NCBI GenBank assembly: GCA_018815925.1
Contig: JAHIWS010000020.1
Location: forward strand, 23,993 to 87,992
Direction: 5' to 3'
Length of the DNA: 64,000 nucleotides
Source of the DNA: Nanobdellota archaeon
GTDB lineage: Archaea; Nanobdellota; Nanobdellia; Pacearchaeales; GW2011-AR1
In this document: positions 1 to 19,396 of the stretch, piece by piece
Numbering within the stretch: the first letter of the stretch is position 1
How the letters are laid out: every line of letters starts with the position of its first letter
Made by a program: the position numbers and the translations under genes
The notes under the pieces: model-generated
The model's database searches: none
Told to the model about the DNA's origin: nothing
The model's input: the letters and a program-made list of their open reading frames with translations, nothing else

Positions 1-488
1 TACAGTTCATTGTCATCAATAGAAATGAAAATTACTCCATTTTTTTTAAGTAAACTCTTAGATAATTCTAATCTCTTTTCCATAAATGAGAGCCAATATC
101 CATGTCTAAAAGGATGATCTTTTGGAACTTCAGTTCCATCAGGAAACTTGGAAATTATTCTCTTATCTTTATATCTAAATCCATCAGAACCCGTATTATA
201 AGGAGGATCAATGTAAATTACATCGATTTTTTCCTTATGAGTATAATTTAAACAAGTTAAGGCATGATAATTATCCCCTTGAATCAAAATATGTTGGGGT
301 TTTCCATCATCAGTCTTTATGGCCAAATTGGGAACTTCTTTAAGAACAGGCAATTTATTTTCAACATCATCTTCAAATGCTTCGGGAACATCCATCCAAA
401 CCAGACCATACCTTTGTTTTTTTACAGATTTTTTAAGCCGTTCAATTTCTTTTTGTAATTTAAATATCTCTTGATCTTTTATCGTCAT
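1..488 (-). CDS. Type III restriction-modification Mod-like N6-adenine DNA methyltransferase (N-terminal part; runs off the window)
   Basis: Manual translation from ATG at 488: MTIKDQEIF...RYGLVW...HILIQGDNYHAL...IDVIYIDPPYNTG...WLSFMEKRL...GVIFISIDDNE; DPPY catalytic motif. Confidence 0.9.
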   Translation of the reverse strand, partial: MTIKDQEIFKLQKEIERLKKSVKKQRYGLVWMDVPEAFEDDVENKLPVLKEVPNLAIKTDDGKPQHILIQGDNYHALTCLNYTHKEKIDVIYIDPPYNTGSDGFRYKDKRIISKFPDGTEVPKDHPFRHGYWLSFMEKRLELSKSLLKKNGVIFISIDDNEL

Positions 489-596
489 TTTTGTTTATAT
501 CTCCCTAAGGTGTTTCATACTTTGTTTTAATTCCAGGCCTTAAATTTTATTTTTTTCTGCATGCTTAATTAAGAATAAACGATTTTTTAAAAGCAT

Positions 597-869
597 CTAT
601 TCTCCAGAGACTTTGAATACCTCTCTTAAAATGTTCCTCCCTTTTTTAGTAATTTTATAAAATTTAAATGAACGGTCTTCGGGATTAATACACTTTATTA
701 AATCTTTCTGAGAAAGTTCTTTTATCGTCGTAGAATTATGAGATTTATATTGTTTAAGTGCCCTCATAATCTCTGGTTGGCTTAATTGAGTGTGATTAGA
801 AAGTAGATTAAGCGTTTCTTTCCTCCTTTTTGCTCTCGCAACAAAACCAATTAGTTTTAAATCTACCAT
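597..869 (-). CDS. Winged-helix transcriptional regulator (MarR/ArsR-like)
   Basis: 90 aa; RRKETLNLL...SQPEI...STTIKELSQKDLI...FYKITKKG wHTH pattern. Confidence 0.75.
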   Translation of the reverse strand: MVDLKLIGFVARAKRRKETLNLLSNHTQLSQPEIMRALKQYKSHNSTTIKELSQKDLIKCINPEDRSFKFYKITKKGRNILREVFKVSGE

Positions 870-953
870 ATATAAAATGAGTTACAGATATTTTTATTTA
901 GAGGTTACAAATTGGGTTACGGAAATAACAACGTTTAAAAAAGCCCAAATCCT

Positions 954-1919
954 ATGAAAAGCATGCCAGAAAAACAAAAATCTTGGATCAGGAGACACTG
1001 GATTATTTCAGGAGTTATAGGGTTCTTTGCATTATTTTTAATCATCGGGGTTTTTCAAGGAGTAAATAATGGAATTACAGGAAATGTAGTTAATGAAGGG
1101 CAATCTGATTTACCTACTTCATATTCTGAAGCCAAGCAAAAAGCAACAGATGTTTCTTATGAAGAGCTCATGCGGCATGCTGAAACTTATCAAGGCCAAT
1201 GGGTCTGTTTTAAAGGAGAAGTTATTCAAGTAATCACAGATCTCCCTAAACTTGAATTGAGAGTGTCTACAAGGGCAGATGAATGGGTTGGTTACATAGA
1301 AGACATTGTTTATGTTTATGCAACTGATTATTCTGGTGAAAGATTATTGGAAGGAGATATGATTCAGTTTTGCGGAAAATCAGGAGGTGCGGTTACTTAT
1401 GAAGCAATTCTTGGTAATAAAATTACAATTCCCGGAATTGAAACTGATGAGGCTTATGTGGAATTAATTGATAAGAGTGAAATAAGTCAAGAGCAAAAAC
1501 CTGTTGCAACACTTGGCCAGATTTGGGTCTCTGCTGAAAACTTTGATGCTGATTCAGATATTGATGGTATTGAATTTAGTCTGCAGCCAAAAGATAGCAA
1601 AGGTGGACTTGTAAATGTAGAGGGCACTGCAAATATAAAACTCTGGAAGATGGAGTGCACAGAAAGAGGTGAATATGGAGAATATTGCCTTCAAGAAGAT
1701 TGCACTCGAAAAGACAGTTTGCTTATTGAAACTTGGTCTCTTCCTATTAACTCAGAAGATTATGATTTCATGGGTGCTAACATTCAAGCAGAATATAAAA
1801 GTTACAAACCTCAGGGAGATAAGTATGAACAAAAAGGCTGCATAGAAGTAACTTTTGTTGATCCAAAGGGAAATAGTTTCACAACATCTGAGAGGGATAT
1901 TTATTTAGCGGGATTTTAA
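954..1919 (+). CDS. Membrane-anchored exported protein with OB-fold-like domain (accessory gene)
   Basis: N-terminal TM helix; YEELMRHAETYQGQWVCFKGEVIQV...RLLEGDMIQFCG OB-like segment; Cys-containing C-terminal domain. Confidence 0.6.
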   Translation: MKSMPEKQKSWIRRHWIISGVIGFFALFLIIGVFQGVNNGITGNVVNEGQSDLPTSYSEAKQKATDVSYEELMRHAETYQGQWVCFKGEVIQVITDLPKLELRVSTRADEWVGYIEDIVYVYATDYSGERLLEGDMIQFCGKSGGAVTYEAILGNKITIPGIETDEAYVELIDKSEISQEQKPVATLGQIWVSAENFDADSDIDGIEFSLQPKDSKGGLVNVEGTANIKLWKMECTERGEYGEYCLQEDCTRKDSLLIETWSLPINSEDYDFMGANIQAEYKSYKPQGDKYEQKGCIEVTFVDPKGNSFTTSERDIYLAGF

Positions 1920-1923
1920 AGAT

Positions 1924-2526
1924 TCACCTCTTGCGTCTTATATCAAGAAATGCAAAAGCGAATCCTCCCGTCCAAGTAAAATTAATCAAAGCCTTAACAA
2001 ACTCCTGGTTTTCTTCTGGAAGCACTACCTTATCTTTGCCCTCTTCTACAATCCACTCGATTTTATCGAGCTGACTTTCTAATTCAGGAATATTTGGGAT
2101 TTTGATTAAACCTTCTTTGAAAAGTTTGTTTAAATAAAAATAAATTCTGCTTTGATCGTCTGCAAAATCATTTGATTTGAATTTTTCAATTTCGAATCTG
2201 CATTTATGAACAGTTACAAAATCTCTAATTTCTTCTATTATTTCATTACTTGCTCCACCAGGATTAATTCTGAATATTCCTTTTTCCACTCCAAAAAATT
2301 CTTTAATCACTTCTTTAATTTTCTCTTTTATATCTTGTCCGATAAAATAATCTATAATTTGATAGTTCTCTTTTTCTATTTCTACTACTTGACTAAATGA
2401 CCTCCCCCTTAAATTTGGGGATTGAACAAATTTACTTCTCTTAGTTTCAGGAATATGATAACCCCACACCATAGCAGACCTTTCTGTTGATGTCTGACCA
2501 ATGCTACATGCAATTATTTTTTTCAT
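1924..2526 (-). CDS. Stand-alone, degenerate terminase RNase H-like nuclease-domain protein
   Basis: Motif-by-motif similarity by eye to the C-terminal half of the adjacent TerL, with the catalytic Asp positions substituted; ATGA overlap with TerL. Confidence 0.55.
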   Translation of the reverse strand: MKKIIACSIGQTSTERSAMVWGYHIPETKRSKFVQSPNLRGRSFSQVVEIEKENYQIIDYFIGQDIKEKIKEVIKEFFGVEKGIFRINPGGASNEIIEEIRDFVTVHKCRFEIEKFKSNDFADDQSRIYFYLNKLFKEGLIKIPNIPELESQLDKIEWIVEEGKDKVVLPEENQEFVKALINFTWTGGFAFAFLDIRRKR

Positions 2527-3926
2527 TGAATAGCTCTCCGTATTTCATTTAAATCAAATAGTTTATTTGCTCTTTGAAAGACAAAAAACATCCTCATCAT
2601 GATTGAATCTCCATAGTCTGTTGATCTTCCAAGATTCTCTTTAATTTCCTCTTTTGTTAAAATGCTCAATGGCTGATCTTTTCCAGGATTCGCTTGTTTG
2701 ATTTGTTCAAGATCCTCAATAATTTTTTCTTTTATTCTCGCATCAATATCCCTATAAATTCCAATTCTTCCAGAGTTAACATAATTCGCAAGTTCAAACC
2801 AACATTGAGCTTTTAAATTTCTAAAATTCTGTAAAGAGGTTTCTTTTTCTTCTTTAGACTTAAAGGGACTTGCGTTATTCACAAATCCTTTGACACCTGT
2901 TAAATCTTTTACTAATCCAAAACCCACACCATCTTCGTCAACTAAGCAGTGACTTCTTTGAATTTTATTTTCTGTTAATATCTTATCTAATTCTTCATTT
3001 GAGATGTTGTCCATTATTTTAATACCTGTGATAAAAAAACCATCCCAAAAAGTTAAAACGGTTTTGTCTCTTCCCCTGCCAGCAACATCAACTGTGCAAT
3101 ATTTCTGACCCTTTTCTGCTTCATTCGTGAACAAGTCCATAATTGCATCATAATTAAAAAGTCTTGTAGGGTCATCGTCATATTCCCAATTTCCATAAAG
3201 CAATCTTTCTTTGCTCACTCTGTCTAATTTTTTAAGATTCTCCAAATGATGGGGGCTGATATAATGATTATCTTTTACAAATGCAGGCAAAAACTTTCTA
3301 TACTTTGGAAGCCTATTTTCTTTCCAAGGTTTGTAAAAATCATAATACAAAAAATTCTTACTTGGATTAGAACAAATCAATAATTTTGGAATTAATTTAA
3401 ATTCTTCAAGTTTGAATCTCAACCTACTCATTAAAATATTCTTTGCCTTGATTGTAACTTCACTTGCTTCATCTATCACAGCTCCGCAAAATTCAGTCGA
3501 GCCCAACGAATCAAATTCAGGATCGCTTGGATATAAGAATAAATCTTTCAAATAGATCTCACTTCCATTTGAAAAGGTAATCACGCCAGCCATTGAATTG
3601 TAATTATAATCTTGATTGGGTTTCAAATTCCAGTCCCTACAAATCTGGAAGAAGGTCAATAATGTTGAGTCTTTAAGTCGTTTTAATACTGCTCGGCCCA
3701 TAAGCCATCTACTCCCTGGATATCTCAAACAAGAGAATGTTAACCATGCACATGCAAGGTGGCTCTTACCTCCACCACTTGCACCTCCGAATAAGAGTTC
3801 TGTAGTCTCTTTGTCTTGAAGTATCTCCCATGCCTGTTCTTGCCTCTTCGTCGGAGAAAACCTGATCTCATGTGTCTGACCCCTTTGAAAACTTGCAGGG
3901 GTTGTTTCTGGCGTGCTTTTTCCCAT
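2523..3926 (-). CDS. terL: Phage terminase large subunit
   Basis: Walker A GGASGGGKS, Walker B AVIDEASE, coupling motif CSNP, LLYGNW linker, nuclease motifs VDVAGRGRD, VDEDGVG, TDYGDS. Confidence 0.93.
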   Translation of the reverse strand: MGKSTPETTPASFQRGQTHEIRFSPTKRQEQAWEILQDKETTELLFGGASGGGKSHLACAWLTFSCLRYPGSRWLMGRAVLKRLKDSTLLTFFQICRDWNLKPNQDYNYNSMAGVITFSNGSEIYLKDLFLYPSDPEFDSLGSTEFCGAVIDEASEVTIKAKNILMSRLRFKLEEFKLIPKLLICSNPSKNFLYYDFYKPWKENRLPKYRKFLPAFVKDNHYISPHHLENLKKLDRVSKERLLYGNWEYDDDPTRLFNYDAIMDLFTNEAEKGQKYCTVDVAGRGRDKTVLTFWDGFFITGIKIMDNISNEELDKILTENKIQRSHCLVDEDGVGFGLVKDLTGVKGFVNNASPFKSKEEKETSLQNFRNLKAQCWFELANYVNSGRIGIYRDIDARIKEKIIEDLEQIKQANPGKDQPLSILTKEEIKENLGRSTDYGDSIMMRMFFVFQRANKLFDLNEIRRAIQ

Positions 3927-3933
3927 TTCCCCA

Positions 3934-4371
3934 TCAATCCTCCTTCTTCTCTGTTATTATCTTGAAAACGTAATTTTTCACGTTCAAATTATGTTCATCT
4001 GCGATCTTTGATTTTAGCCCAAATTTCTCTAAGAAATCGGTGAAATTAGAAATTGTTTGATTAAGCAAAGAGATCCCCTTTGCTTGGATATTCTGATCTT
4101 GTGATAAAATCAATCTATGGGCGGCCCTCATGCTCACTTCAAAAGAGAGTATAAATTTTTTGGATAACTTCTCAATTTCAGGGAAGGCTATCTGTCTTAT
4201 CACAATTTCAATGTCTTTGTAAATTTGTCTTTCAGTAACCTTAAATTTTTCAGAAAGGCTTTTAACAACTTGCACAGGTATTCCAAAACCTCCGGCTGCA
4301 TTAAGATAATTCAAAATATCATTTCTCCTTTCTATGTAGTTTCCTTTTTTCTCTGCCATTTTTTGAATCAA
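3934..4371 (-). CDS. Putative terminase small subunit
   Basis: N-terminal HTH (LSEKFKVTERQIYKDI), helical middle region, C-terminal beta tail; directly upstream of terL. Confidence 0.6.
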   Translation of the reverse strand: MIQKMAEKKGNYIERRNDILNYLNAAGGFGIPVQVVKSLSEKFKVTERQIYKDIEIVIRQIAFPEIEKLSKKFILSFEVSMRAAHRLILSQDQNIQAKGISLLNQTISNFTDFLEKFGLKSKIADEHNLNVKNYVFKIITEKKED

Positions 4372-4419
4372 ATCGAAACAGGTTCTCTCTTAAAGGTCAT
4401 TTCATATCCAAAACCAATA

Positions 4420-4519
4420 GTTCAAAGTTCATATCTATAGAAATATGAACTTTTGAACAATCTCTTGGTTTTTTGCTAAAAGTTCAAATAATCCAATTGA
4501 ACTTTCTGAACTATTGAAC
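4420..4519. repeat. Iteron-like GTTCA/TGAAC array with inverted repeats (putative element origin or pac site)
   Basis: Eight GTTCA/TGAAC pentamers at 4420, 4427, 4446, 4454, 4482, 4498, 4507 and 4515, directly downstream of the primase-helicase gene. Confidence 0.6.
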
Positions 4520-4521
4520 AA

Positions 4522-6291
4522 TCATAAAACCTTATATTGTCCATGAGATACTTTCTCGATTATTCCTGACACCTCCATTGTTTTGAGTGCATTATTGAAA
4601 TTAGTTTTACCAATTCCTTTGTTAGCAGCTTTTTCTAATCCTTCATTTGTTTGAAATTCTTTTATTCCTTTTTCCTTAAACCATTTCTTTAAAACTTCAA
4701 TACATTTGTCCTCTTTGTTCTTTTTGACGAATTCGCCAGAGTAAACCATTTTAATCTCATCTTCAAGAAATGTAACCAAAAGTTTCATCGGTGGCAACTC
4801 TGATTCATTTCTATTCTTTAATTGTTTCAAAACCAAATTTCCTCCCTTCCTTTCTGCTTTAAGAATTGCATCTGCATAATTTGCCAAGTCGCTTGATCCC
4901 CTTAACTCATCCATCTCATCTCCAGCAGATCCACCCTTACGATTATGATGTAACAAAAGAATTGAGCAATTGTACTTTTCGACTAAAGGCCTTAAAGTAT
5001 CGACAAACAATTCAGATACACTTCCTGCATCATTCTCATCAAAAGAGATGGCCCTTCTATAAGTATCAATCACTAATAACTTAGGTTTATGTTCTTCCAA
5101 TATTTTCTCAATTGCTTCAATGTCTCTTTTTTTATCAATCTTAATTGAAGAAAAACAAATAAATCCAATATCATATTCTCCCGTCAACCCTAATCCCTTT
5201 TTAACCATCGAAGTTCTTTTTTTCATTATCGCATATCCATTCTCTTTATCGAGATAAATTACTTTTCCTTTTTTGGATTTGAACTTATTTAAAAAATCAT
5301 TACCTGACGCAACAGCATAACATATCAAGATAGCCAAAAAAGTTTTCAAGACTCCTGCCTTTCCGACTAACAAACACACAGATCTATTTGCGATAATCTT
5401 TTCAATTATCCACTCTAATCCTTCGGTTTCGTAATCTTTTAAATTGCCTTCCCAGATAATATTCAGATCAACTTTCTGTTCTTTAATTTCTCGTGGTTTT
5501 AATCCATATTTTTCTTCTGCAATTTTTAAAACATTAACAAAATCTACTTTTCTTAAAGAACCACTTTTTGCATCAGAACAATCCATAAGACCTTCCTTTA
5601 CTGCGATTGCAGCTGCAGGACCCCCACCAGAATTGCATCTAAAACAGTGCCACGTATTCTTAAAAGGATTTATCCAAAAGTTAGATTTTGTCTCAGAACC
5701 ATGAATAGGATGGGAACCATAATATTCACTTCCCTGTTTTTTCAATCCAGCAGTTCCCCAAATATCTACAACAGATAAGTTATCTATATCCGAATCTTGA
5801 ATTATTTTTGATACAGGAATTTCTTTCTTATCTTGGAAAGGTTTAACAAATTCAATAAGCTGATCATAATTAAGATTTGTTATTGGGATGTCATTCATGG
5901 CTTCATAAATTTTTCCAGAAGGATGAACTGATCCTGGCCCTATAACCTGAGTTCCCTGGCTCTGAACCTCTCCAATATGTTCTCCCTCTAATTTTAAAAT
6001 AATTTTTTTCTTTAACCCTTCAACAAAAAAATAATTATGCATTCCATTTCCTGTTTTAACCTTAAATGTCTGAGGTAACTTTCCATCTATCAACATCTGC
6101 AATTTTGTGCTATCAGCATCTATCACTGCAAGATTATCATATCCACATAAAACCCCATAATTCTCATCAGGAAGAAAATTCTTAATTTCACTGTAAGAAT
6201 ATGGTTTGTTAACCCAATCTGATTCAAAAGGCTTTTTCGTTCCCTTTTTTATCCTACAGAATTTTAAGTTTTGTAATGTTTCTGGTATCAT
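4522..6291 (-). CDS. Bifunctional primase-polymerase fused to Zn-finger and RecA/AAA_25-like helicase
   Basis: Prim-pol motifs NYGVLCG..VIDAD, KTGNGMHNYF, VIGPGSVHPSG; H-P-I-H...WHCFRC zinc finger; Walker A GKAGVLKT; LVIDT; LLHHNRK...LRGSS. Confidence 0.88.
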   Translation of the reverse strand: MIPETLQNLKFCRIKKGTKKPFESDWVNKPYSYSEIKNFLPDENYGVLCGYDNLAVIDADSTKLQMLIDGKLPQTFKVKTGNGMHNYFFVEGLKKKIILKLEGEHIGEVQSQGTQVIGPGSVHPSGKIYEAMNDIPITNLNYDQLIEFVKPFQDKKEIPVSKIIQDSDIDNLSVVDIWGTAGLKKQGSEYYGSHPIHGSETKSNFWINPFKNTWHCFRCNSGGGPAAAIAVKEGLMDCSDAKSGSLRKVDFVNVLKIAEEKYGLKPREIKEQKVDLNIIWEGNLKDYETEGLEWIIEKIIANRSVCLLVGKAGVLKTFLAILICYAVASGNDFLNKFKSKKGKVIYLDKENGYAIMKKRTSMVKKGLGLTGEYDIGFICFSSIKIDKKRDIEAIEKILEEHKPKLLVIDTYRRAISFDENDAGSVSELFVDTLRPLVEKYNCSILLLHHNRKGGSAGDEMDELRGSSDLANYADAILKAERKGGNLVLKQLKNRNESELPPMKLLVTFLEDEIKMVYSGEFVKKNKEDKCIEVLKKWFKEKGIKEFQTNEGLEKAANKGIGKTNFNNALKTMEVSGIIEKVSHGQYKVL

Positions 6292-6608
6292 AGTATTTGC
6301 TGTCCATATTTAATTTTGTTAATTGGTTCCTGCTTACTAAGCCAGCAGAAAAAGCATTCCTTCATGTAATAATTTTCTCGAATGAAAATCCTTCCACATT
6401 TACATTTGTATATTTTCTCTTCGTCAACTTCCATTCCAGTATTACACTCAAATCCGAGATTAACAGCACATTCGAAGCAGAGCCAGAGAATATCCCATCT
6501 ACCACTGCTGTTCTGGTCAACATAATACATTTCTTTTATTCTCCCACATAGTTTACATCTCCTTCCTTTTTTCATTTTAAAAATAAAAAGGGGATTTTTC
6601 ATCCCCAA
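6288..6608 (-). CDS. Zinc-finger protein
   Basis: CKLC, CFEC, CKC, CFFC motifs. Confidence 0.6.
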   Translation of the reverse strand: MGMKNPLFIFKMKKGRRCKLCGRIKEMYYVDQNSSGRWDILWLCFECAVNLGFECNTGMEVDEEKIYKCKCGRIFIRENYYMKECFFCWLSKQEPINKIKYGQQIL

Positions 6609-6612
6609 AAAA

Positions 6613-6933
6613 TTAAAGTGGCTTTAAGACAATCATTTCCTTTCCAAATTTCGGACTTTTGTCTTTAGTGATTTTCACTTTCTGACCAATCCAATTGACG
6701 TCATCTTCGCCGTACTTTCCAATCAAATTTGAAATTGAAAAGTTGTTCAAGAAAACATCAAACTTCAATTGTCCGCTGTCTACTGTTGCCACTAATCTGT
6801 CGCCATGCTTGGTTTCCAGGTCCTTAATTTTCTGGATGGAAACATCCATTTCCTTAACATATTCCAGATCTTCATCGGACGTCGGTTTGACCTTGATGGT
6901 CGGCAGAATTTCTTTAGCTTTTCTAAGCACCAT
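6613..6933 (-). CDS. Small beta-rich protein, possible OB-fold ssDNA-binding protein
   Basis: Strong SD (GGAGG); LIGKYGEDDVNWIGQKVKI pattern seen in viral SSB-like proteins; lies in the replication module. Confidence 0.45.
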   Translation of the reverse strand: MVLRKAKEILPTIKVKPTSDEDLEYVKEMDVSIQKIKDLETKHGDRLVATVDSGQLKFDVFLNNFSISNLIGKYGEDDVNWIGQKVKITKDKSPKFGKEMIVLKPL

Positions 6934-6973
6934 TGTTTAACCTCCTGCAATTTAATTATCTCTTCGAAGAGCA

Positions 6974-7159
6974 TCATTTTTCCGCCTCCTCTAAAGTCGA
7001 AATTTCAGAAATAGAAAGGAGGACAATTTTCCCAGTTTTATCTCTAATTTTTATAAAAGAATTGTCTGCAGCTAACAAATGCCCACGGTAATAAAAGCTA
7101 CTCCTTAAAATTATTTTGACATATTTCCCAATCAAATTATTACAATCAATCGAATCCAT
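6974..7159 (-). CDS. Sm-like (LSm/Hfq-fold) protein
   Basis: LIGKYVKIIL..YYRGHLLAADNSFIKIRD (Sm1-like) and IVLLSISEISTL (Sm2-like). Confidence 0.6.
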   Translation of the reverse strand: MDSIDCNNLIGKYVKIILRSSFYYRGHLLAADNSFIKIRDKTGKIVLLSISEISTLEEAEK

Positions 7160-7161
7160 TT

Positions 7162-7344
7162 TTACCTCTTTTTTTTAATCTCCTCGAGAATTTGATTTAA
7201 TTTTACTTCGACACTTTTTGATTGAAACATTCTTGATCGACAAAAAGAGGTTACAGTAGGGAACCCTTCCATCTTCGCAAGTTTCTCCAATCTCTCTTTC
7301 TCTTCCTTCGTCGCCTTTATCATAACGAAATGATTTTTAGCCAT
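7162..7344 (-). CDS. Ribbon-helix-helix DNA-binding protein
   Basis: HFVMIKATKEEKERLEKLAKMEGFPTVTSFCR beta-helix-helix pattern. Confidence 0.7.
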   Translation of the reverse strand: MAKNHFVMIKATKEEKERLEKLAKMEGFPTVTSFCRSRMFQSKSVEVKLNQILEEIKKKR

Positions 7345-7546
7345 TTTTCACCTCTTCAAATTTAATAAGTGTATTTTTTCCAGTGCTAAGAATTATAATT
7401 TGCCCATTCATTTTCAAAATTTCAAGAATTTCTTTAACAGTTCTGTATCTCAACATAGCCTCTGAACAGATTTGGGAAGGAGAAACAGCTACATCTTTCT
7501 CCCTTAGATAATTTAACACCTTTTGAATAGATTTTGTATTTGCCAT
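7337..7546 (-). CDS. Small winged-helix protein (Cro-like position)
   Basis: KVLNYLRE...SPSQIC...YRTVKEILEILK..GQI; first gene of the leftward operon. Confidence 0.7.
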   Translation of the reverse strand: MANTKSIQKVLNYLREKDVAVSPSQICSEAMLRYRTVKEILEILKMNGQIIILSTGKNTLIKFEEVKNG

Positions 7547-7552
7547 CTTGTT

Positions 7553-7648
7553 TGATATTTAATATCAATCAATAGTTCTTTTTTTATAAATCTTTTGGTT
7601 GGATATTAAGTATCATACTAATACTACACAATGACAACATTTATAAAA
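7553..7648. promoter_or_regulatory. Divergent promoters with two operator-like palindromes
   Basis: TGATATTTAATATCA (7553-7567) and GGATATTAAGTATCA (7601-7615) flank TTTATAAA near 7583-7590; a second TTTATAAA lies near 7641-7648. Confidence 0.55.
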
Positions 7649-7670
7649 TCAGTTTGACATAAAATACAAT

Positions 7671-8588
7671 ATGGATATAAAAAAGAGCAGCAGCGGAAGA
7701 GACAAGATAAAAGTTATTGAAAGTGTCCCATATAGCCAATTAATATTTTTGATCTCCTCTGGAAAAACCTATGCATTAGAGATAGCTAAAGCCAGAGGGA
7801 AAAAAGATAGCTCCCCAACAGCAAAACAATTGGACCAGTTAAAAAAAAGGGGGTTTCTAACTTCAAAAAAAGGGGGGTTACTTAATAAGAATATTTATTC
7901 AATTAATTGGAAAAAAATTAATAAAGAATTTGTCAATTATGTTTTTAACATTTTCGAGAAAGATGTTAAAGATTATAAAAAAATAAGTAAAAAAGAGCAG
8001 GATGAACCAAAGGAAAATCACTACAACGAACTTCTAAAAAAAATAAAAACCAAAAACTTTGATAAGGATATCAAAAACCACGAGTACCTCATCACGTTAT
8101 TAAAACTTACCTTCCCTCTTGTTGAGAATAGAGAAAAAACCATTAGAGAGATATTTGAAGATTTAAGAATAAATTTTCCTCAACCACCAGGCACTTTTGT
8201 TGATCACCCTTCAAAATTTCATGATGAAAAAAAGAGAAGAGAATCAGGAGAATACTACACAGATCTTATTGAAGGGAGAAAAAGAGATGAAAAATACGCC
8301 CAACTAGAAGAGTTCATTAAAATAACAAGAGGTGTTTCAGATACAGTTGGAATGCGTGGTATTGAACGTCTATGGAAATATCTGCAAATCAAATATACTG
8401 CTTCACACCCAAATAATGAAATAAGAAAAGAATTATTGCAAACAGTTCCAAAAGAGGTGATGGAAATTATAAAAGAAAATTGTTTCAAAGGAACAAAACC
8501 CACCGAAAATAAAGAAGAAGATTCTGAAAATGCAAATCAAAATGTTGTCTTATCGACGGAAAAAGGAGAAATTGAAAATGAAAAGTAA
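7671..8588 (+). CDS. HTH-domain protein, putative element repressor
   Basis: N-terminal wHTH (YALEIAKARGKKDSSPTAKQLDQLKKRGFL); divergent from the replication/packaging operon. Confidence 0.6.
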   Translation: MDIKKSSSGRDKIKVIESVPYSQLIFLISSGKTYALEIAKARGKKDSSPTAKQLDQLKKRGFLTSKKGGLLNKNIYSINWKKINKEFVNYVFNIFEKDVKDYKKISKKEQDEPKENHYNELLKKIKTKNFDKDIKNHEYLITLLKLTFPLVENREKTIREIFEDLRINFPQPPGTFVDHPSKFHDEKKRRESGEYYTDLIEGRKRDEKYAQLEEFIKITRGVSDTVGMRGIERLWKYLQIKYTASHPNNEIRKELLQTVPKEVMEIIKENCFKGTKPTENKEEDSENANQNVVLSTEKGEIENEK

Positions 8589-8684
8589 ATGTTCCTTTTA
8601 TACCACACCTATCCTAAAACAGATACCGGCCCAATATGTTCTTACAGCCCCTGATACCCTCGAATTTAAAGGTTTTAGCTCTAT

Positions 8685-9836
8685 GTGCATTCTTGGTACT
8701 TTACAGGCTTAATTCCAGGAATCCACATAAATCTTGTAGGGGTTTCTATTGTTTCTTTATCAGCATCTTTACTAGCATCTATAAACCCTCTTTATCTTTT
8801 GATTTTTATTGTTGCAACGGCAATCACCCACACTTTTCTTGATTTTATTCCTAGTGTTTTTTTAGGATGCCCAGACACAGACACAGAACTTTCAATTTTA
8901 CCGGGCCATGAACTTTTAAAAAAAGGCCAAGGATATTCTGCAATAATGCTAACTGCCTATGGGAGTCTAGCAGCAATATTTTTATTACTTATTATTACTT
9001 GGCCTTCAATAATAATTATTTCAAAAATACAAAACATTCTTCCAATAATAATTCCAGGATTATTAGTATTAGCTACTCTTTTTTTAATTTCAACAGAAAA
9101 AAATAAATCAAAGGCGATATTTGCCTTTCTCTTAACAGGAATCTTAGGATTAATTATTTTAAATTTAGAAAAAGTTGACCAACCTCTTCTTCCTTTATTA
9201 ACAGGATTATTTGGAGGGGCAACAATTTTATTATCTATAAAAAACAAAACCCAAATTCCCAAACAAACTCTTAAACTAACAAAAACTAAAATTTCCAAAC
9301 CCATCTTAGGAGCTTTAATAGCATCCCCAATATGCTCTTTTCTTCCAGGTTTAGGATCAGGACAAGCAGCAATCATAGGAAATTCAATTGCCCAAACAAA
9401 TAAAAAAGGTTTTCTAATTTTATTAGGTGCAACAAATACTTTAGTAATGGGTTTTTCTTTTATCTCATTGTATGCAATATTAAAAACAAGAACAGGAGCA
9501 GCATCAGCAATTAAAGAAATTTTGGGAACCTTGGAAACAAATTATTTAATTTTAATCCTGTTAGTAATTTTAATTTCAGGAGTAATTTCTTTTTATTTAA
9601 CAAAAAACTTAGCAAAATTCTTTTCACACAAAATAACAAAAATAAATTACACAAAAATTTCCCTAGCGACCCTATTAATATTAACACTAATTGTTGTCTT
9701 AGTTTCAGGTTTTTGGGGCTTGCTGATTTTAATAATCTCAACTCTAACAGGAATCTATTGCATCAAACTAAAAGTAAAAAGAACTCTTATGATGGGTTGT
9801 CTAATGTTACAGACGATTTTATGGTATTTGTTTTAA
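8685..9836 (+). CDS. Tripartite tricarboxylate transporter TctA-like (DUF112) membrane protein, 5'-truncated or frameshifted
   Basis: FTGLIPGIHIN, FLDFIPSVFLG, LSILPGH, FLPGLGSGQAA motifs; the first TM helix is missing. Confidence 0.8.
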   Translation: MHSWYFTGLIPGIHINLVGVSIVSLSASLLASINPLYLLIFIVATAITHTFLDFIPSVFLGCPDTDTELSILPGHELLKKGQGYSAIMLTAYGSLAAIFLLLIITWPSIIIISKIQNILPIIIPGLLVLATLFLISTEKNKSKAIFAFLLTGILGLIILNLEKVDQPLLPLLTGLFGGATILLSIKNKTQIPKQTLKLTKTKISKPILGALIASPICSFLPGLGSGQAAIIGNSIAQTNKKGFLILLGATNTLVMGFSFISLYAILKTRTGAASAIKEILGTLETNYLILILLVILISGVISFYLTKNLAKFFSHKITKINYTKISLATLLILTLIVVLVSGFWGLLILIISTLTGIYCIKLKVKRTLMMGCLMLQTILWYLF

Positions 9837-11245
9837 GCTTCAACCTCTCTCCAACAGCCAGGACACAAATTCTCTGCAGGCAAACCAACTGCCTCAACCA
9901 TATCATTAAAATATTGAAATTTCAGACTAGTCAAACCTAAATCCATCCTAATAACTTCCACCATCCGGCCATATTTTTCAGAGTTCTCATCTGTATAAGA
10001 TGTAATATCAAAAACATCTCTACCTTCAACTTTTTTCATTGCTCTTCTAGTAGCTAAATCCATTATTGATTTTGATCTTGAAAAATTTAAAAAATTACAA
10101 GCATGTGTCAAAGGTGGACAAGAAATCCTGGCATGAACCTCTGTTGCACCATGTTTAAACAATTCTCGAACCTTTTCTTTTAATTGTGTTCCTCTAACAA
10201 TAGAATCTTCTGTAATTATAATTTTTTTATTTTTAATAATTCTCCTATTTCCAATTAATTTATACTCTGCAACTAAATCCCTTATTTTTTGATCTTGAGG
10301 CATAAAACTCCTCCCCCATGTCGGAGTATACTTTACAAAACCCCTCTCATAAGGCAAACCACTCTTATTACTATATCCTATCCCGCTCCCAACACCAGAA
10401 TCAGGGATTCCAAAAACAAAATCAACATCAAACCCTCCCTCATCTAAATCTCTTTGAGCAAGAAATTCTCCAAATTGATACCTAATTTGTTCAGCATTAA
10501 CCCCTTCATAACAAGAAGTAGGAAAACCATAATAAATTGGTAAAAAAGTACATAATTGTAATTTATTTCTAGGTTCTTTCAACTGCCTATACACTTCATT
10601 TGTCAAAAGCCCAATTTCTCCAGGCCCTAAATCTTTTTCAAATTCAAAACCAAGATTTTCAAAAGCAGTAGTTTCAGAAGTAGCAGCCATACTGCCAAGC
10701 TTTCTTCCAACAACAATAGGAGTCCTACCAGATTTATCTCTAGCAAGATAAATTCCCTCTTTAGTAAGTAACATTAATGAAGAACTTCCCTTAATCTCAT
10801 TTTGCATAATCTCAATACCCTCAACAAAACTTTTTCCTTGAGAAATTAGATTAGCAATTAACTCAACTTGATTAAATTCTTCCTCAGTATTTTCAATAAA
10901 ATTTTTTCCTTTTTCAAGCTCTCTTAAAGCAAGTTTCTCTAAATTTGCAATTTTTCCAACATGTGCTAACGCATAATTCCCTAAATGTGATTTAATTTTA
11001 AATGGTTGCACTTCATAATCACTAACAACCCCAATTCCACTCCTGGCCTTAACATTTTCTTTAAAATTAAAAAGCTGGGGTCTAAAAGGATAAAGCCCAA
11101 TACTTTTTATCTTATAGTGAATATCTTTCCTATCATAAACAGCCATCCCTCCAATTTTAGTTCCCAAATGAAACTGGTAATCTGTTCCATAAAACAAATC
11201 ATCTACACAATTTCGATCTGAAACAATTCCAAATATCCCTGACAT
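9833..11245 (-). CDS. purF: Amidophosphoribosyltransferase-like protein
   Basis: Ntn glutaminase domain plus PRTase motif IITEDSIVRGT, GIPDSG, RSFMP, C-terminal LCPGCW. Confidence 0.85.
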   Translation of the reverse strand: MSGIFGIVSDRNCVDDLFYGTDYQFHLGTKIGGMAVYDRKDIHYKIKSIGLYPFRPQLFNFKENVKARSGIGVVSDYEVQPFKIKSHLGNYALAHVGKIANLEKLALRELEKGKNFIENTEEEFNQVELIANLISQGKSFVEGIEIMQNEIKGSSSLMLLTKEGIYLARDKSGRTPIVVGRKLGSMAATSETTAFENLGFEFEKDLGPGEIGLLTNEVYRQLKEPRNKLQLCTFLPIYYGFPTSCYEGVNAEQIRYQFGEFLAQRDLDEGGFDVDFVFGIPDSGVGSGIGYSNKSGLPYERGFVKYTPTWGRSFMPQDQKIRDLVAEYKLIGNRRIIKNKKIIITEDSIVRGTQLKEKVRELFKHGATEVHARISCPPLTHACNFLNFSRSKSIMDLATRRAMKKVEGRDVFDITSYTDENSEKYGRMVEVIRMDLGLTSLKFQYFNDMVEAVGLPAENLCPGCWREVEA

Positions 11246-11297
11246 AAAAACAAAAATTCAACCCCTCTTTTAAATTAAATTGTGGTAAAATAGGTAA

Positions 11298-14200
11298 TTA
11301 AACCCATTCTCCTAAACCTGTTTGTTTTTCAGCTTCCTTACCAAAAATACTATCAATATATCCTTTAACAAGTTCAAGGTTTTGTTTTACATAGGGTGAA
11401 AGATTATACTGCTTGGCTAAATTAAGCGCAGGTTCTAAATACTTTTTAATTCCACCTTCATGAACTGTAAAAATTATTTTACCTCCACACTTAGGACAAA
11501 TCCCTGTTAAAGGAGGCCTCCTTAAAATCTCATTGCAAGCAACACACCTAAATTCTTGGGTAGAAAACTTTCTTAAATTCCCCCTAAGATCTTTCATAAA
11601 ATGTCTTTCAATTACTAACCTTGCTGTATCTGAAGTGTCGACAGCCCTTATTTTCTCAACTAACTCCATTTGATGTTTAAGTTTTTCTTGCATTGTTCCA
11701 AGACTTTTATAAGAAGAACATCTTATTCCTTTATTAAAATCAAAGGTATCATGTGTATAACCCATTCCAATAAAAGGATTTTCTCCTTTGTCCAATAAAC
11801 TTTTAACATTTTTTATTTTTACTTCAGACGAGTGTTTTTTTTGTTCAGCAGCCCGATAAAGTTCTAAAGGATAGCTCTTTACAAATTCAAAATCTAAAAT
11901 CTGATCATCTACTTCCCCTGCATCAATTTTTGCATTTAAAACTAATGGAGCATCTTGGGTTCCTCCTCTGTGGCTTGGCAAAAACTGTCTTGAAAAATTT
12001 AACAAAACATCGCCCAACAACATCACAGCCATTTCATCACCATCACAATCTCTTCTAATAGCCGCGTGCATATAAGGAGAAGCTAAAAGCCCAAGAGTTT
12101 TTGAAAAACCAATAAATCTACAAATTACTCCTGCACAATTATGGGGTGCCATACACACACCCATTTTACCTATTAAGTCATCCCTATTTTTTACATTATA
12201 AAAAGGTTTTAATTTGTAAAACCTAACAAGTTCCTCATCAACAAAATTAGCAACCCTAATAAAAACATCATCAGCTTTTTCATCAGGTGTATCAGGAGAA
12301 CTTGGAAGAAGAATATCATGAGGCATTAATTCTATTATTTGTTCTTCATTTACAATATCTTTTCCATCTATATCCTTAACATACCCCAGGTCCCTTAATT
12401 TTTCAACATCCACACCTATTTCCCTTGGTTTAAATGCAACCAAAGGAAGTTCAGTAGCATCAAACCTAATTGTCCCATCTTTATTTACTTGCAGCTCATT
12501 TCTTGCTCTTAAAATGCCTTTAGAAAGATTTTCCATCATATGTCCCTCTGAACTCGTACCTCTAACCCCTTTAATTAACAAAGGTATTTCTGTTTTTGAA
12601 AGCCCAAGATTTCCAACTGCTTCATTAAAAAAATGATTTATGTCCAAAGAAAAAGTACAATAAGTTTGTTTATATTCATGTTCTTCACAAGCAACAAAAC
12701 TTTTTTCCTTGCACCTAGGACAATAATACATTTTTCGAGTTTTACACCCGCAAATTTCACAAACAGAATAAATTGTTTCTTTTTTACACTTATCACAATT
12801 GTAAATTGGAAATGCACTTCTAACACTCCCTTGCTCACAAGCAGCCTGAATACTCCTTAATCTTCCTCCTTCTTTTCCAACAGGAAATAAAACATTTGGG
12901 CTTCCAACAAGTTTCCTAAGTTTTGCTTTTTCAGGGCGCCCCATTCGTGCCCCAATAAATTCTCCTGATTTATCTCTAATTTCAAACTCAGAAACAGAAT
13001 TAACAATCTCCAAAATATTTTTACCAGATTTGAATTTATTTTCATCCATAAAATCCCTTAATAAATTTTTTTTATTGCAAACAAGTTCAAAATCAAGACC
13101 AAGATTAGCCAATAAAGCTTTACTATGTTCTTTATTTAAAACAACATTTTCAATTGTAACCACATGTTCTATACCTAATAATTCCAAAGCTCGCTTTCCT
13201 TGCTTAAAATTTTCTTGATCTATTTTTGCATATGGAAAAATTATTTTTCCATCAATCTTTGAAACTTTTAACCATTCAATAAGATTAAAAAATTCTAAAG
13301 GAGAAATTTCCTTCCAATAAAAAATATAATTTGGGTGCAAAGAAATCTCAAATTCCCTGCTTATTTTAACAGCCGTATCAAAATCTATATTAAAAAAATT
13401 TAAATTTCTTGAAAATTCTTTATCTTTCTCTTGTAATTCCAACCCCCACCACTCTTCAACATATCCTGGTTTAATCAAATCAGCATTTCTGTTTGCAACA
13501 TCACTAAAAGGAAAAAGAATGTCCCCTAGATAAATAATCTCCTCTACATCAGGGTAAAATAATTTTGCTTCTTCAATTGATTTTAATTTTTTTACACTTC
13601 CATTAAATAATTTAACTATAGGCCCATCTATCTGATCACAAACCGTGATTGCTGCCCCTTTAGTTGGTTTTTCAATCTTTAATTGACTTCCAATAGCCAA
13701 AAAACTATCTGTTATTGCCATTGTAGCAGGGTGTACAGAAGCTGCACTAAATCCAGACACCCTTCCCCTTCCATACCTAAATCTAAACGCTCCTGATCTT
13801 GAAGGATGCCCAAAAACAGGTCTTCCAGCAACAAGATCTTTAATATAAGTTGGGGAATCAAGTGCCTTTCCCACATCCCTTTTTTCATGAATTTTAATAT
13901 ACTCTTCAAGAAAATCAAAACCAGTGGATTTAAATCCTCTTTTTTTTAAACTTGTCAAAAGCCTAAAACCTTTTGCAGCTTTTTGAGCCAAACCTTCTCC
14001 AAGAATTAAACAAAATCCACTCCTCAAATAATTAGTTTCAACTCTTTCTAAATTTTTATAATTAGATACTTCAAGTTTTTCAGAAGGATCTCCTGAAACT
14101 TGGATAGGAAGATTCTTTGCTAAAAAAAGTGTTTCTTCTTCTGTAGGCATATATTGGAGATTAGTGATTCTATCATGAAAATCAGAGAGTTCTGTAAATA

Positions 14201-14759
14201 CTCTTTTTATTTCTTCCTCTGAAGGATCATGTTTTTCATACCCAAACATTTCTCTAAGATAATCTATTAAAATCAAAACCATACAACTTGCAGTAGTTCC
14301 TGCACTTCGTATTGGTCCTGAAAAACCTGCAACAAAATAATCCTTGCCTTGTCTTGTTTTTCTAAGTTTTAACCCAGTATAACCTTCAATTGGGCTTGAA
14401 ACAACACCTAAAGTAAGGTATGCAAAACCAACCCTAACACCTGCATCAATTGCCTCAAGCAAATCTTTAAATTTACAAAATTTTTGTTTTGCAACCTCTT
14501 CTGCAATTTTAAATGCAACAGCCACATCTAATTTCCCATATTCTTTTTCAAGACCTAAAATCCTTTTTGCAATACTAGATTCTTCCATCTGAGGATAAAT
14601 AGTAGATATTAACCCTACAACCTTTTCTGCCATACTCATAGCAAGAGGAATCTCAACCTTATCTACAGGATCTAATCCTTTAGCCCTAGCTTCCTCTGCA
14701 ACTTCATAAACTCCTTTGACCCCCTCTTCAATCATCTTAAAATATTTTTGAGTGTTCAT
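11298..14759 (-). CDS. polC: DNA polymerase II (PolD) large subunit DP2
   Basis: GVVSSPIEG, GPIRSAGTT, RMGRPEKAK, catalytic RRDCDGDE, C-terminal Zn finger. Confidence 0.97.
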   Translation of the reverse strand: MNTQKYFKMIEEGVKGVYEVAEEARAKGLDPVDKVEIPLAMSMAEKVVGLISTIYPQMEESSIAKRILGLEKEYGKLDVAVAFKIAEEVAKQKFCKFKDLLEAIDAGVRVGFAYLTLGVVSSPIEGYTGLKLRKTRQGKDYFVAGFSGPIRSAGTTASCMVLILIDYLREMFGYEKHDPSEEEIKRVFTELSDFHDRITNLQYMPTEEETLFLAKNLPIQVSGDPSEKLEVSNYKNLERVETNYLRSGFCLILGEGLAQKAAKGFRLLTSLKKRGFKSTGFDFLEEYIKIHEKRDVGKALDSPTYIKDLVAGRPVFGHPSRSGAFRFRYGRGRVSGFSAASVHPATMAITDSFLAIGSQLKIEKPTKGAAITVCDQIDGPIVKLFNGSVKKLKSIEEAKLFYPDVEEIIYLGDILFPFSDVANRNADLIKPGYVEEWWGLELQEKDKEFSRNLNFFNIDFDTAVKISREFEISLHPNYIFYWKEISPLEFFNLIEWLKVSKIDGKIIFPYAKIDQENFKQGKRALELLGIEHVVTIENVVLNKEHSKALLANLGLDFELVCNKKNLLRDFMDENKFKSGKNILEIVNSVSEFEIRDKSGEFIGARMGRPEKAKLRKLVGSPNVLFPVGKEGGRLRSIQAACEQGSVRSAFPIYNCDKCKKETIYSVCEICGCKTRKMYYCPRCKEKSFVACEEHEYKQTYCTFSLDINHFFNEAVGNLGLSKTEIPLLIKGVRGTSSEGHMMENLSKGILRARNELQVNKDGTIRFDATELPLVAFKPREIGVDVEKLRDLGYVKDIDGKDIVNEEQIIELMPHDILLPSSPDTPDEKADDVFIRVANFVDEELVRFYKLKPFYNVKNRDDLIGKMGVCMAPHNCAGVICRFIGFSKTLGLLASPYMHAAIRRDCDGDEMAVMLLGDVLLNFSRQFLPSHRGGTQDAPLVLNAKIDAGEVDDQILDFEFVKSYPLELYRAAEQKKHSSEVKIKNVKSLLDKGENPFIGMGYTHDTFDFNKGIRCSSYKSLGTMQEKLKHQMELVEKIRAVDTSDTARLVIERHFMKDLRGNLRKFSTQEFRCVACNEILRRPPLTGICPKCGGKIIFTVHEGGIKKYLEPALNLAKQYNLSPYVKQNLELVKGYIDSIFGKEAEKQTGLGEWV

Positions 14760-15337
14760 TTTAATTTCTCCAAGATTTCATACCAATCCTCAACTCTCTC
14801 GACATTATCAGGCAAACCATCTCCCTGATTCCAAGGTTTATCTAATAAAAAAACACCTATTCCTTTTTCAGCACAATCTAAACCATAAATTTCATTGTCA
14901 TCTACTAAAAAATCTACTTTTTTCTCTAAACATATTTCAGCCTTGCTTCCATTTTCAGTAGGGTGGATACCCCCTGAATAAAAAATAGGGGTGTTAAAAT
15001 TATTAAGATTCCTTTTGAAAAAACTTTCTGTTTCTCTTGAAACCTCCTTAGATCTTGAAGTAACAAAACAAGAAATATGTTTTTTATTTAAATCCTCAAA
15101 AACGTTTTTAAAATCAGAATAAAGGACCCTATCTTCAAAAAAACTAGTTTTCCTAAAATCTACAAGCAAATCTCTAAAAGAATCTTTATCTAACCCCAAA
15201 CACTTCCAAATTTCAGAAGAATTTATATCTTCAAAAGAATAATTGGTATTAAATCCCCTATTATAATATATAAGAAAAGGTTTCACAAAATCCACCACAG
15301 TATCATCCACATCAATTGCTATCTTCATCTTCCTCAA
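14756..15337 (-). CDS. HAD-family 5'-nucleotidase (NT5C-like)
   Basis: IAIDVDDT, FVTSR, SKAEIC..FLVDD, KPWN motifs. Confidence 0.85.
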   Translation of the reverse strand: MRKMKIAIDVDDTVVDFVKPFLIYYNRGFNTNYSFEDINSSEIWKCLGLDKDSFRDLLVDFRKTSFFEDRVLYSDFKNVFEDLNKKHISCFVTSRSKEVSRETESFFKRNLNNFNTPIFYSGGIHPTENGSKAEICLEKKVDFLVDDNEIYGLDCAEKGIGVFLLDKPWNQGDGLPDNVERVEDWYEILEKLK

Positions 15338-16898: not shown

Positions 16899-16900
16899 TT

Positions 16901-18115: not shown

Positions 18116-18194
18116 TTTAAAACAATACCCCTTTATTAATAAGATTTATATTCTTTAATCCTCATTAAAAAATTTACCTATTATAAAAGTTCTT

Positions 18195-18540
<346 letters not shown>

Positions 18541-18628
18541 TATTGATAAAAAAGAGAGATAATAGACTCTTGTAAATACTATATACCTTTACAGAAAAAT
18601 TTATAAATTGTTTCTCTCTTGCTTTGTT

Positions 18629-18889
18629 ATGCAAACTGAAAAAAATCCCTTTAGTGCTATATTGGGAAAAATGATAGTGACAAAAGAAGGAAAAAGATTA
18701 GGTTTTGTTAAAGATATAACTTTTGAAACACGATCAGGAGAATTAATTAATCTTGTAGTAAAAGATCCAACCCCTTATACTAAAAATCTTAATCTTGAAA
18801 AAACATCTTCTAATGATCTTTTAATTCCTTATAGTGCAATAATAGCCATAGGTGATTTTGTTATTGTTTCTGAAGAGGATTTAATTTAA
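18629..18889 (+). CDS. PRC-barrel domain protein (family includes archaeal CdpB division proteins)
   Basis: GKMIVTKEGKRLGFVKDITFETRSGEL...IPYSAIIAIGDFVIV. Confidence 0.85.
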   Translation: MQTEKNPFSAILGKMIVTKEGKRLGFVKDITFETRSGELINLVVKDPTPYTKNLNLEKTSSNDLLIPYSAIIAIGDFVIVSEEDLI

Positions 18890-18930
18890 TTTACACAAAT
18901 ATTTAAAAACACACTTTTTATTTAAATAAA

Positions 18931-19362: not shown

Positions 19363-19396
19363 GAAGAATTTTAAGTTATATTTCTTTTTATTTCTT

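Follow-up and report, generated by a model that had tools for sequence, protein, structure and literature searches.

Why is a gene for a terminase large subunit (TerL) followed, with overlapping stop and start codons, by a small gene whose product resembles the nuclease domain of TerL deprived of its catalytic aspartates? The question is raised by a 64,000-nt stretch of DNA of a Nanobdellota archaeon (the window; positions 23,993 to 87,992 of contig JAHIWS010000020.1, assembly GCA_018815925.1), in which an initial annotation had described such a gene at 1924..2526 on the minus strand. Examining this gene, here called ORF200 or dNuc, we confirmed the observation as a whole: ORF200 encodes a stand-alone, non-catalytic homolog of the RNase H-like nuclease domain of TerL, coupled to terL and under selection. 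The part of the interpretation that made it a paralog of the adjacent TerL did not stand, another group of TerLs being closer. Taking the evidence below together, we consider it very probable that ORF200 is a selected, non-catalytic derivative of a TerL nuclease domain that works with TerL.

The frame of ORF200 is uninterrupted and encodes 200 amino acids (aa) from an ATG start codon (2526-2524), which shares bases with the TGA of terL (2525-2523) in the sequence ATGA. A GGAGAG Shine-Dalgarno-like motif (2539-2534) is located 7 nt 5' of this ATG, and the overlap together with the motif (2523..2539, minus strand), as read from the DNA, points to translational coupling, in agreement with the earlier claim of an intact, coupled gene. 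Carrying its own start codon and this Shine-Dalgarno-like motif, and with an in-frame stop 6 codons upstream, ORF200 is not fused to the packaging ATPase. Scanning for bacterial promoters and terminators, a type of scan ill-suited to an archaeon, yielded matches at chance level only.

By simple comparison ORF200 has no evident relatives of known function. Pairwise BLASTP against the adjacent TerL showed no significance (best E 0.59), Pfam gave no match, the Terminase_6C model included, PADLOC left ORF200 unmatched, and PHROGs returned merely two families of unknown function (E 0.038 and 0.098). A word-indexed protein search found three close relatives (82-87% identical, 199-200 aa). With the profile built of ORF200 and these three as query, a search of 1.84 billion representative proteins yielded 12 matches other than to the family itself (E 2e-8 to 8e-4), 11 of which belong to the PHROG annotation 'terminase large subunit' and eight to Pfam terminase families; in the full-length TerLs among them the matched stretch is the C-terminal domain. 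One of the 12 TerLs (P0010), used alone as query against the genome that carries ORF200, retrieved ORF200 and nothing else (E 3.7e-9, 33% identity). The same four-member profile found chance-level matches only (E > 1) among the sequences of the PDB. All four blocks that had been aligned by eye between ORF200 and the adjacent TerL were recovered by MAFFT when other TerLs were included, namely CSIGQTSTERS with VDVAGRGRDKT, RINPGGAS with VDEDGVG, a long helix, and QEFVKAL with TDYGDSI; relative to TerL domains the alignment places two insertions in ORF200, at about residues 27-51 and 59-66. A later protein search, using ORF200 together with the type of ORF246, a divergent member described below, added nine further ORF246-type clusters of 195-253 aa. 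The dNuc family comprises 13 proteins of 195-253 aa that are 27-98% identical and fall into two subfamilies about 30% identical to each other.

Structure prediction agreed with this assignment. The AlphaFold2 model of ORF200 has a predicted local distance difference test score (pLDDT) of 74 and a predicted template modelling score (pTM) of 0.72, with low-confidence stretches at residues 29-51, 112-116 and 188-200. Every Foldseek match at E <= 0.001 among the matches listed was a terminase, the best being G20c (E 2.7e-5), and the best matches were the TerL nucleases of G20c, D6E, P74-26, Sf6, P22, SPP1 and HK97. By VIA-align, the top 34 entries (Z 14.7 to 10.9) were all terminase nuclease domains, among them E217 (Z 14.7, root-mean-square deviation 2.9 over 154 aligned residues) and Sf6 residues 237-465 (Z 14.5), followed by RuvC at Z 9-10. 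Given that the alignment behind this model contained TerLs, we built a control model with an alignment restricted to the 13 family members. Its pLDDT was lower (59.5), and its top matches were again TerLs, those of D6E, Sf6, SPP1, G20c and P74-26. The first model shows a helix (residues 124-137), a strand, a second helix (147-154) and a beta-hairpin of the terminase type (157-168). Two models thus match solved TerL nuclease domains best, indicating that ORF200 has the RNase H-like fold, and profile and fold matches together bear out its description as a homolog of TerL nuclease domains.

To compare the catalytic motifs, ORF200 was aligned with the 12 TerL matches and the adjacent TerL. Where the TerL matches carry C-D-[VP]-A-D-K-G-x-D-x-T in motif I, N-I-D-x-I-G-V-G in motif II and S-P-D-F-A-D-A-L in motif III, ORF200 reads C-S-I-G-Q-T-S-T-E-R-S, R-I-N-P-G-G-A-S and N-Q-E-F-V-K-A-L, respectively. 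The profile of that alignment pairs motifs II and III with 'LWDGDGVGAG' and 'SPNLADAL' of Sf6 gp2 and motif I with 'IDPSGRGKDET' of a T7-like TerL. In Sf6 the metal-binding triad is D244, D296 and D444, with N441 as a further ligand (PMC4678813), and in G20c the changes D294N, D347N and D429N gave the lowest nuclease activity, the residues being called indispensable (PMC5389553). In place of this acidic triad ORF200 has S8 (codon 2503..2505, minus strand; Sf6 D244), N88 (2263..2265, minus strand; Sf6 D296) and K178, the last within codons E175-F-V-K178 (1993..2004, minus strand), which cover the positions of Sf6 N441 and D444, so that the third catalytic Asp is a Lys. The replacement of the RNase H metal-binding aspartates proposed in the initial annotation is therefore seen both in the alignments and upon mapping to the Sf6 triad. 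It extends to the family: the D244-equivalent is Ser in four, Tyr in six and Asn in two of the 12 members that cover motif I, and the D296-equivalent is Asn in 12 and Ser in one of all 13, none being acidic at either position. Among the 12 members that cover motif III, the N441-equivalent is always Glu, and the D444-equivalent is Lys in four, Asp in five, Glu in two and Asn in one. The loss of the acidic residues of motifs I and II across the family indicates that inactivation is old and that the protein has been kept since. Judged by its sequence, ORF200 is a pseudo-enzyme, a TerL nuclease domain without catalytic function; lacking both the acidic triad and the fusion to an ATPase, it is not to be filed as a terminase nuclease, although fold and descent place it there.

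The remaining carboxylates allow for a protein that is still a nuclease, or some other enzyme, by means of other residues: E15 and E175 are conserved, Asp or Glu occupies position 178 in the other subfamily (seven of the 12 members covering motif III), and 'drifting' of active-site residues among terminases has been described (PMC4678813). This we regard as very improbable, since the core carboxylates of motifs I and II are gone in every family member, Asp-to-Asn changes at those positions abolish activity in G20c (PMC5389553) and the subfamily of the window has Lys at the third position.

Where did this domain come from? The neighbouring terL (2523..3926, minus strand) encodes a complete large terminase of 467 aa, which matches Pfam Terminase_3 and Terminase_6N and, over residues 21-452, phrog_2 ('terminase large subunit'). 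Its nuclease active site is intact: it retains VDVAGRGRDKT, VDEDGVG and TDYGDSI, and D280, D287, D330, D332, D437 and D440 do not vary across 30 aligned relatives. The relatives of this TerL, which we term clade A, form a large group (6296 of the 7999 proteins scored reach E <= 1e-10), in which only two clusters are close (95% and 87% identity) and the next are at most 70% identical. The 12 TerLs matched by the ORF200 profile we term clade B. The profile scored 35.2-50.2 bits against these and no more than 13.5 bits with any of the 120 clade-A relatives listed, indicating that dNuc descended from a terminase lineage other than that of its neighbour and speaking against the supposed paralogy with the adjacent TerL. 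A clade-B-like TerL that matches the ORF200 profile is encoded on G294:C16, in a genome from the same host family, where an 815-aa TerL frame with a Hint/intein domain is preceded by a small helix-turn-helix (HTH) gene and followed by an intein-bearing portal-MuF gene of 1576 aa. As a separate observation on that viral region (6392-13671 of the locus, L021), the intein of the portal-MuF fusion carries a LAGLIDADG domain.

The arrangement of dNuc after terL recurs elsewhere. Among 111 IMG/VR loci with a clade-A terL, one (L023, with the TerL of cluster P0039) has an ORF that matches the ORF200 profile (E 3.6e-15). This ORF246 encodes 246 aa, starts 6 nt past terL and is 32% identical to ORF200 (E 7e-21). 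A JGI contig (L134), equal to L023 in the compared dNuc and terL genes, shows the order small ORFs, terS, terL, ORF246; the TerL of L023 and L134 is 62% identical to the neighbour of ORF200, and the gene before terL in L134 is 43% identical (E 7e-41) to the putative terS of the window, so that a divergent dNuc follows terS-terL in a second element. On another JGI contig (L135), the genes that come after ORF246 encode a serine recombinase of 220 aa and an HTH protein, with no portal gene next to it. In other IMG/VR loci the gene after terL matches the portal of a complete provirus (G252:C8, described below) in 18 cases and is an unassigned ORF of 430-810 aa in many more, and others have an unrelated ORF of about 190-240 aa. 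The 190-240-aa ORFs 3' of terL in marine viral contigs (e.g. L071, L078 and L082) were considered as dNuc candidates and rejected, as they are unlike ORF200 and do not match its profile. Separately, in many marine viral contigs (L071, L077, L078, L082, L088 and L104) a conserved ORF of 200-240 aa, unrelated to ORF200, directly follows terL and carries the motif IP-x2-W-x-E-[VL]-[TK]-L-x2-Y. Locus searches with the four-member alignment confirmed nothing in any of the three sets of contigs (metagenome, genome and viral); those with the 13-member alignment gave one viral and two metagenome loci and none in genome contigs.

Signs of selection, suggested at the outset, come from the conservation of the family and from the pattern of nucleotide changes. 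The four close dNuc proteins differ at 62 positions and have one gap, of a single residue, at the C-terminus. For changes within the gene we used Logan contigs of at least 80% likeness from other groundwater runs, 40 of 343 differences being listed; the runs that contain DNA of the ORF200 region are labelled groundwater metagenomes. Among the listed differences 14 fall in ORF200, of which 10 affect the third position of a codon (binomial P = 0.004) and eight are synonymous, and 26 fall in terL, with 19 at third positions and 18 synonymous. A 427-nt contig from another study (run X8) covers 2362-2705 across the junction of terL and ORF200 with 38 differences in 344 nt (about 89% identity). Two apparent joints in the aligned contigs (2189 to 4155 and 3554 to 3814) were given no weight, each appearing in one contig of low likeness, one of these with a short side of 20 letters. 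These data bear on the view that ORF200 is a decaying, functionless remnant of a second terL. The lost catalytic residues, the rarity of the family and the want of a Pfam or PHROG family would fit a remnant, but the frames of 195-253 aa are intact in all 13 clusters, even where identity falls to 27%, and start, tail and motifs are conserved, the bias towards third codon positions is like that of terL, and the place after terL is kept in two diverged elements. We therefore regard decay as improbable in the extreme.

If dNuc is kept without catalysis, its partner may tell its role. We predicted the complex of ORF200 with the adjacent TerL from alignments of 12 and 30 sequences, respectively, in three runs and three controls. 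The interaction prediction score from aligned errors (ipSAE) was 0.75, 0.70 and 0.75 for TerL-ORF200 and 0.00 in all three controls; the runs share at least 71% of their contacts, and the pLDDT of the partner was at least 74. The part of TerL predicted to dock on ORF200 is its C-terminal arm, residues 453-467 (ANKLFDLNEIRRAIQ; 2526..2570, minus strand), of which residues 453-459 (ANKLFDL) and 461-467 (EIRRAIQ) lie against ORF200 residues 129-168 (2023..2142, minus strand), as judged from the interface list and the secondary structure. L456 and F457 of TerL are predicted to lie against ORF200 residues 129, 130, 133, 136, 153, 156-158 and 167. The models thus support binding of the TerL arm by ORF200. 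We know of no solved complex in which a TerL arm is held by an inactivated nuclease domain.

The sequence of the arm fits a partnership of this kind. The adjacent TerL and its two close clusters end in NKLFDL[ND][ED]IR[RK]A[IM][QR], and the clusters P0039 and P0044, 62% identical to it, in NKLFDL-x-x-I-x-x-AFK, so that the NKLFDL core is exactly what the tails of the two dNuc-partnered TerL lineages have in common. The NKLFDL tail is confined to TerLs with a dNuc partner; among the 111 IMG/VR loci only L023 has it, and the remaining clade-A TerLs end in LAFDFV, LAFAFG, KPYISV and others. dNuc also has a tail of its own of the TerL type (pattern W-x2-G-x-[AV]-F-x-F), FTWTGGFAFAF in ORF200 and IWNWGLVFDF in ORF246, compared with WSDGKDLAFAF in a clade-B TerL, and in the AlphaFold2 model of ORF200 this tail is disordered and free. 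As a side observation, four TerLs of the same clade (P0021, P0026, P0096 and P0123) have a K/E-rich C-terminal extension of about 50 aa that ends in G-[KQ]-[IV]-x-[FLM]-[GA]-P.

What kind of DNA carries the gene? ORF200 lies in the right part (window 1..8650, either strand) of an integrated element of about 19.5 kb (about 13100-32640 of the host contig, G000:C13). Its genes encode a tyrosine integrase, a DUF4238 protein, a Cas4-like nuclease, a type III restriction-modification (R-M) system, a winged HTH protein, a membrane protein, dNuc, TerL, TerS, a primase-helicase and small ORFs. The first gene of the terS-terL-dNuc cassette encodes a putative small terminase (3934..4371, minus strand; 145 aa), an HTH protein so named from a weak HTH_11 match and its position. 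Integration and replication genes are present: the tyrosine integrase gene lies beside an aminoacyl-tRNA synthetase gene, and the replication module (4522..6291, minus strand) encodes a primase-helicase with PrimPol, Zn-ribbon and AAA_25 domains by Pfam. The right end of the element appears to lie before a TctA transporter gene at about 8650; no convincing flanking att direct repeat was found across the island in this AT-rich DNA, so that both ends are approximate. Pfam recognised no portal or capsid gene among the larger ORFs of the island, the small ORFs being unannotated. The host assembly measures 0.93 Mb, is 88% complete and has about 31% G+C, and genes for archaeal PolD DP1/DP2 and Cdc6/Orc1 lie a few kb from the element. 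In contrast, the complete provirus G252:C8, with a clade-A TerL of 43% identity, has the order HNH, terL, a 60-aa ORF, portal, HNH, protease/scaffold and capsid protein. We regard the dNuc elements as satellite-like and as belonging to small-genome (DPANN-like) archaea.

Several further features of these regions deserve mention in their own right. The island carries defence cargo to the left of the window (about 13100-24000 of G000:C13; L002:5100-16500) and at window 1-490, comprising a type III R-M system (Mod 559 aa, Res 797 aa), a Cas4-like PD-(D/E)XK nuclease, a DUF4238 protein (PADLOC 'DUF4238-Pers') and a DUF365 protein; its tyrosine integrase has a SHOCT tail, and the adjoining aminoacyl-tRNA synthetase is of class I. 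A gene on the plus strand (954-1919) converges on ORF200, with stops 4 nt apart, and encodes a 321-aa membrane-anchored protein, residues 58-165 of which match PHROG 'outer membrane protein' families (E 6e-15); the element may carry it as cargo. Just beyond the genes for Cdc6 and PolD, window 18600-23510 contains several HTH proteins and a serine recombinase (22711-23508) with Resolvase and Recombinase domains, and may be another mobile element. The provirus G252:C8 (L018) has its whole head module at 2029-8946; there the start of terL is overlapped by an HNH gene of 80 aa and a second HNH gene follows the portal gene, an HK97-like layout of HNH and terminase.

How could an inactivated nuclease domain serve such an element? 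Work on phage terminases gives a frame: for the C-terminal arm of TerL nuclease domains, portal docking and control of the ATPase have been proposed, and in D6E the arm governs the binding of ATP and keeps an inactive 'initiation' state locked (PMC5727402). Since dNuc is predicted to hold the TerL arm and presents its own tail, we prefer to read it as an accessory subunit that adapts or gates docking on procapsids that the element does not encode. By this account, a TerL nuclease domain would have lost its metal-binding aspartates long ago and been kept as a separate protein, the third gene of a terS-terL-dNuc cassette in small integrative elements, made together with TerL by translational coupling. 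A groove formed by helix 124-137, helix 147-154 and hairpin 157-168 would clamp the TerL arm (NKLFDL...), and dNuc, keeping its own TerL-type tail free, would take over or mask the arm that in the phages studied is proposed to dock on the portal. The terminase of the element could thereby be directed to procapsids from a helper of the TerL lineage from which dNuc came, while competing with the terminase of the helper. That dNuc is a non-catalytic terminase accessory or adaptor in satellite-like archaeal elements is, as a whole, the best explanation that we can offer, and we hold it with evenly balanced confidence; the portal-adaptor mechanism we put forward only tentatively, and portal docking, the identity of the helper and the satellite lifestyle we infer. 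The adaptor proposed in the initial annotation is thus consistent with the predicted complex, its role being our reading of that model, while the proposal made there that dNuc blocks a helper terminase at the portal remains an inference, neither helper nor portal having been found in the 88%-complete genome.

The predicted contact and what is known of the D6E arm also suit a protein that regulates the terminase of the element from within and has no part at the portal. Holding the arm, or pairing a dead with a live nuclease, would keep ATPase or nuclease off until the right time, shape the cutting of DNA ends or add DNA-binding specificity: the contact is made by the very arm that in D6E controls ATP binding and the inactive state (PMC5727402), translational coupling suggests a fixed stoichiometry, and contact with DNA could be made by the insertion at residues 27-51, which is basic and modelled with low confidence. 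Such a regulator leaves unexplained why dNuc is restricted to apparently capsid-less terS-terL elements and absent at the other 110 terL loci, and why it originated from a different TerL clade; we consider it unlikely. The origin from another clade, which occurs in the same host family, and the retained TerL-type tail would also be expected of a pure decoy or inhibitor that mimics the nuclease or tail of a rival or helper TerL so as to poison its motor or occupy the portal, or that, as the initial annotation suggested, soaks up host sensors of terminases (Avs-type), and bacteria offer a precedent in Gpi, a TerL inhibitor encoded by the satellite PLE (10.1101/2024.04.22.590561, as summarised in its abstract). 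The sole interaction modelled, however, is with the TerL of the element itself and scored well, the matching lineage-specific tail of that TerL points to partnership with it, and ORF200 has no match in PADLOC, making a decoy quite improbable.

A number of points weigh against the accessory-subunit reading that we prefer. The family is rare: among 401 genomes of the order a strong match (E 5e-131) was found in the genome of the window only, and three of the 10 others, all of them weak (E 3e-8 to 9e-3), were read, one being the clade-B-like TerL (L003/L021) and two (L004 and L007) unrelated proteins of 285-290 aa, which we rejected. The measure of constraint rests on the 40 of 343 differences listed, drawn from short contigs, and the changes between L023 and L135 (five synonymous, four non-synonymous) are too few to read. 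As regards the complex, 116 of 157 solved complexes attain the ipSAE mark, as do 2 of 215 mismatched pairs, a calibration that is only approximate here because we used our own alignments, and binding is expressed as model confidence; furthermore, the contact of tail and groove could mimic an ordinary contact of the TerL tail with a nuclease domain within or between subunits, in which case it would say little in favour of an adaptor. The [AV]F-x-F tail, being present in both TerL clades, cannot single out a lineage of helpers. With the portal and capsid of the G252 provirus as queries, the 88%-complete host genome yielded no helper virus, portal or capsid, nor was a clade-B TerL, portal or major capsid protein found there with the queries used; with a genome complete to that degree and two queries, the absence of portal and capsid weighs little as evidence. 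The claim that these elements are without structural genes rests on one 19.5-kb island and the short contigs L023, L134 and L135.

If the preferred reading is right, a conserved, inactivated, stand-alone copy of a nuclease domain paired with TerL is a new packaging accessory and a pseudo-enzyme, it gives a molecular handle on how a capsid-less element might aim its own motor at foreign capsids, and its carriers would be a class of integrative elements with terS and terL that has not been described before, in small-genome (DPANN-like) archaea, for which hardly any virus satellites are known. Going further, these elements may be the first satellites of head-tailed archaeal viruses, bringing their own terS and terL together with a portal adaptor made from an inactivated nuclease domain of a helper-lineage TerL; the TerL tail would have evolved to plug into the adaptor and the adaptor tail into the helper portal, so that the motor is retargeted to foreign procapsids and the helper terminase shut out. 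This is a possibility that we raise with more doubt than belief. A full-text literature search, in which subscription journals were largely uncovered, returned no report of an inactivated stand-alone terminase nuclease domain.

Among known systems, Gpi of the Vibrio cholerae PLE is comparable in being small, in being encoded by a mobile element (capsid-less, as the dNuc element appears to be) and in targeting the packaging motor by binding TerL, which is reported from experiment for Gpi and predicted for dNuc. Gpi binds the TerL of the helper phage, PLE having no terL of its own, whereas the predicted partner of dNuc is the TerL of the same element; the likeness is one of function. We know of no report that Gpi is derived from TerL. 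Phage-inducible chromosomal islands (PICIs), P4 and minimalist chromosomal islands inducible by phages (PICMIs) resemble the dNuc element in having an integrase, primase-type replication, defence cargo and packaging genes. Capsid-forming PICIs carry capsid and portal genes in addition to terS and terL, and classical PICIs and PICMIs carry terS only; the dNuc element differs from these in combining terS and terL without a recognised capsid or portal gene, and in its archaeal host. The archaeal satellites pSSVx and pSSVi, the SRCEs of spindle-shaped viruses and the Asgard NMV2S are also small elements proposed to use the virion of a helper, but they are linked to spindle-shaped viruses or have no terminase, and none has been reported to carry terL or an accessory derived from TerL; according to a 2025 preprint, only pSSVi and pSSVx had been described before it.

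A small gene beside terL is also familiar from HNH endonucleases, which work with HK97-type terminases. HNH differs from dNuc in fold and is active as a nuclease, dNuc is inactive, and the element of the window has no HNH gene next to terL, unlike the G252:C8 provirus with its HNH gene overlapping the terL start. To our knowledge, terminase nuclease domains are known solely as active parts of TerL. With these domains (Terminase_6C; Sf6 gp2, G20c, P74-26, D6E, SPP1 G2P, P22 gp2 and E217) ORF200 has in common the fold (Z 14-14.7, 144-157 residues aligned), the order of motifs I-III, the beta-hairpin, the C-terminal tail and a detectable sequence homology; it differs from them in being a separate gene of 200 aa without an ATPase domain, in having Ser, Asn and Lys at the three catalytic Asp positions and in its two insertions. 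dNuc is, in sum, a known domain in a new and non-catalytic form, and the archaeal element that carries it is of a kind so far undescribed.

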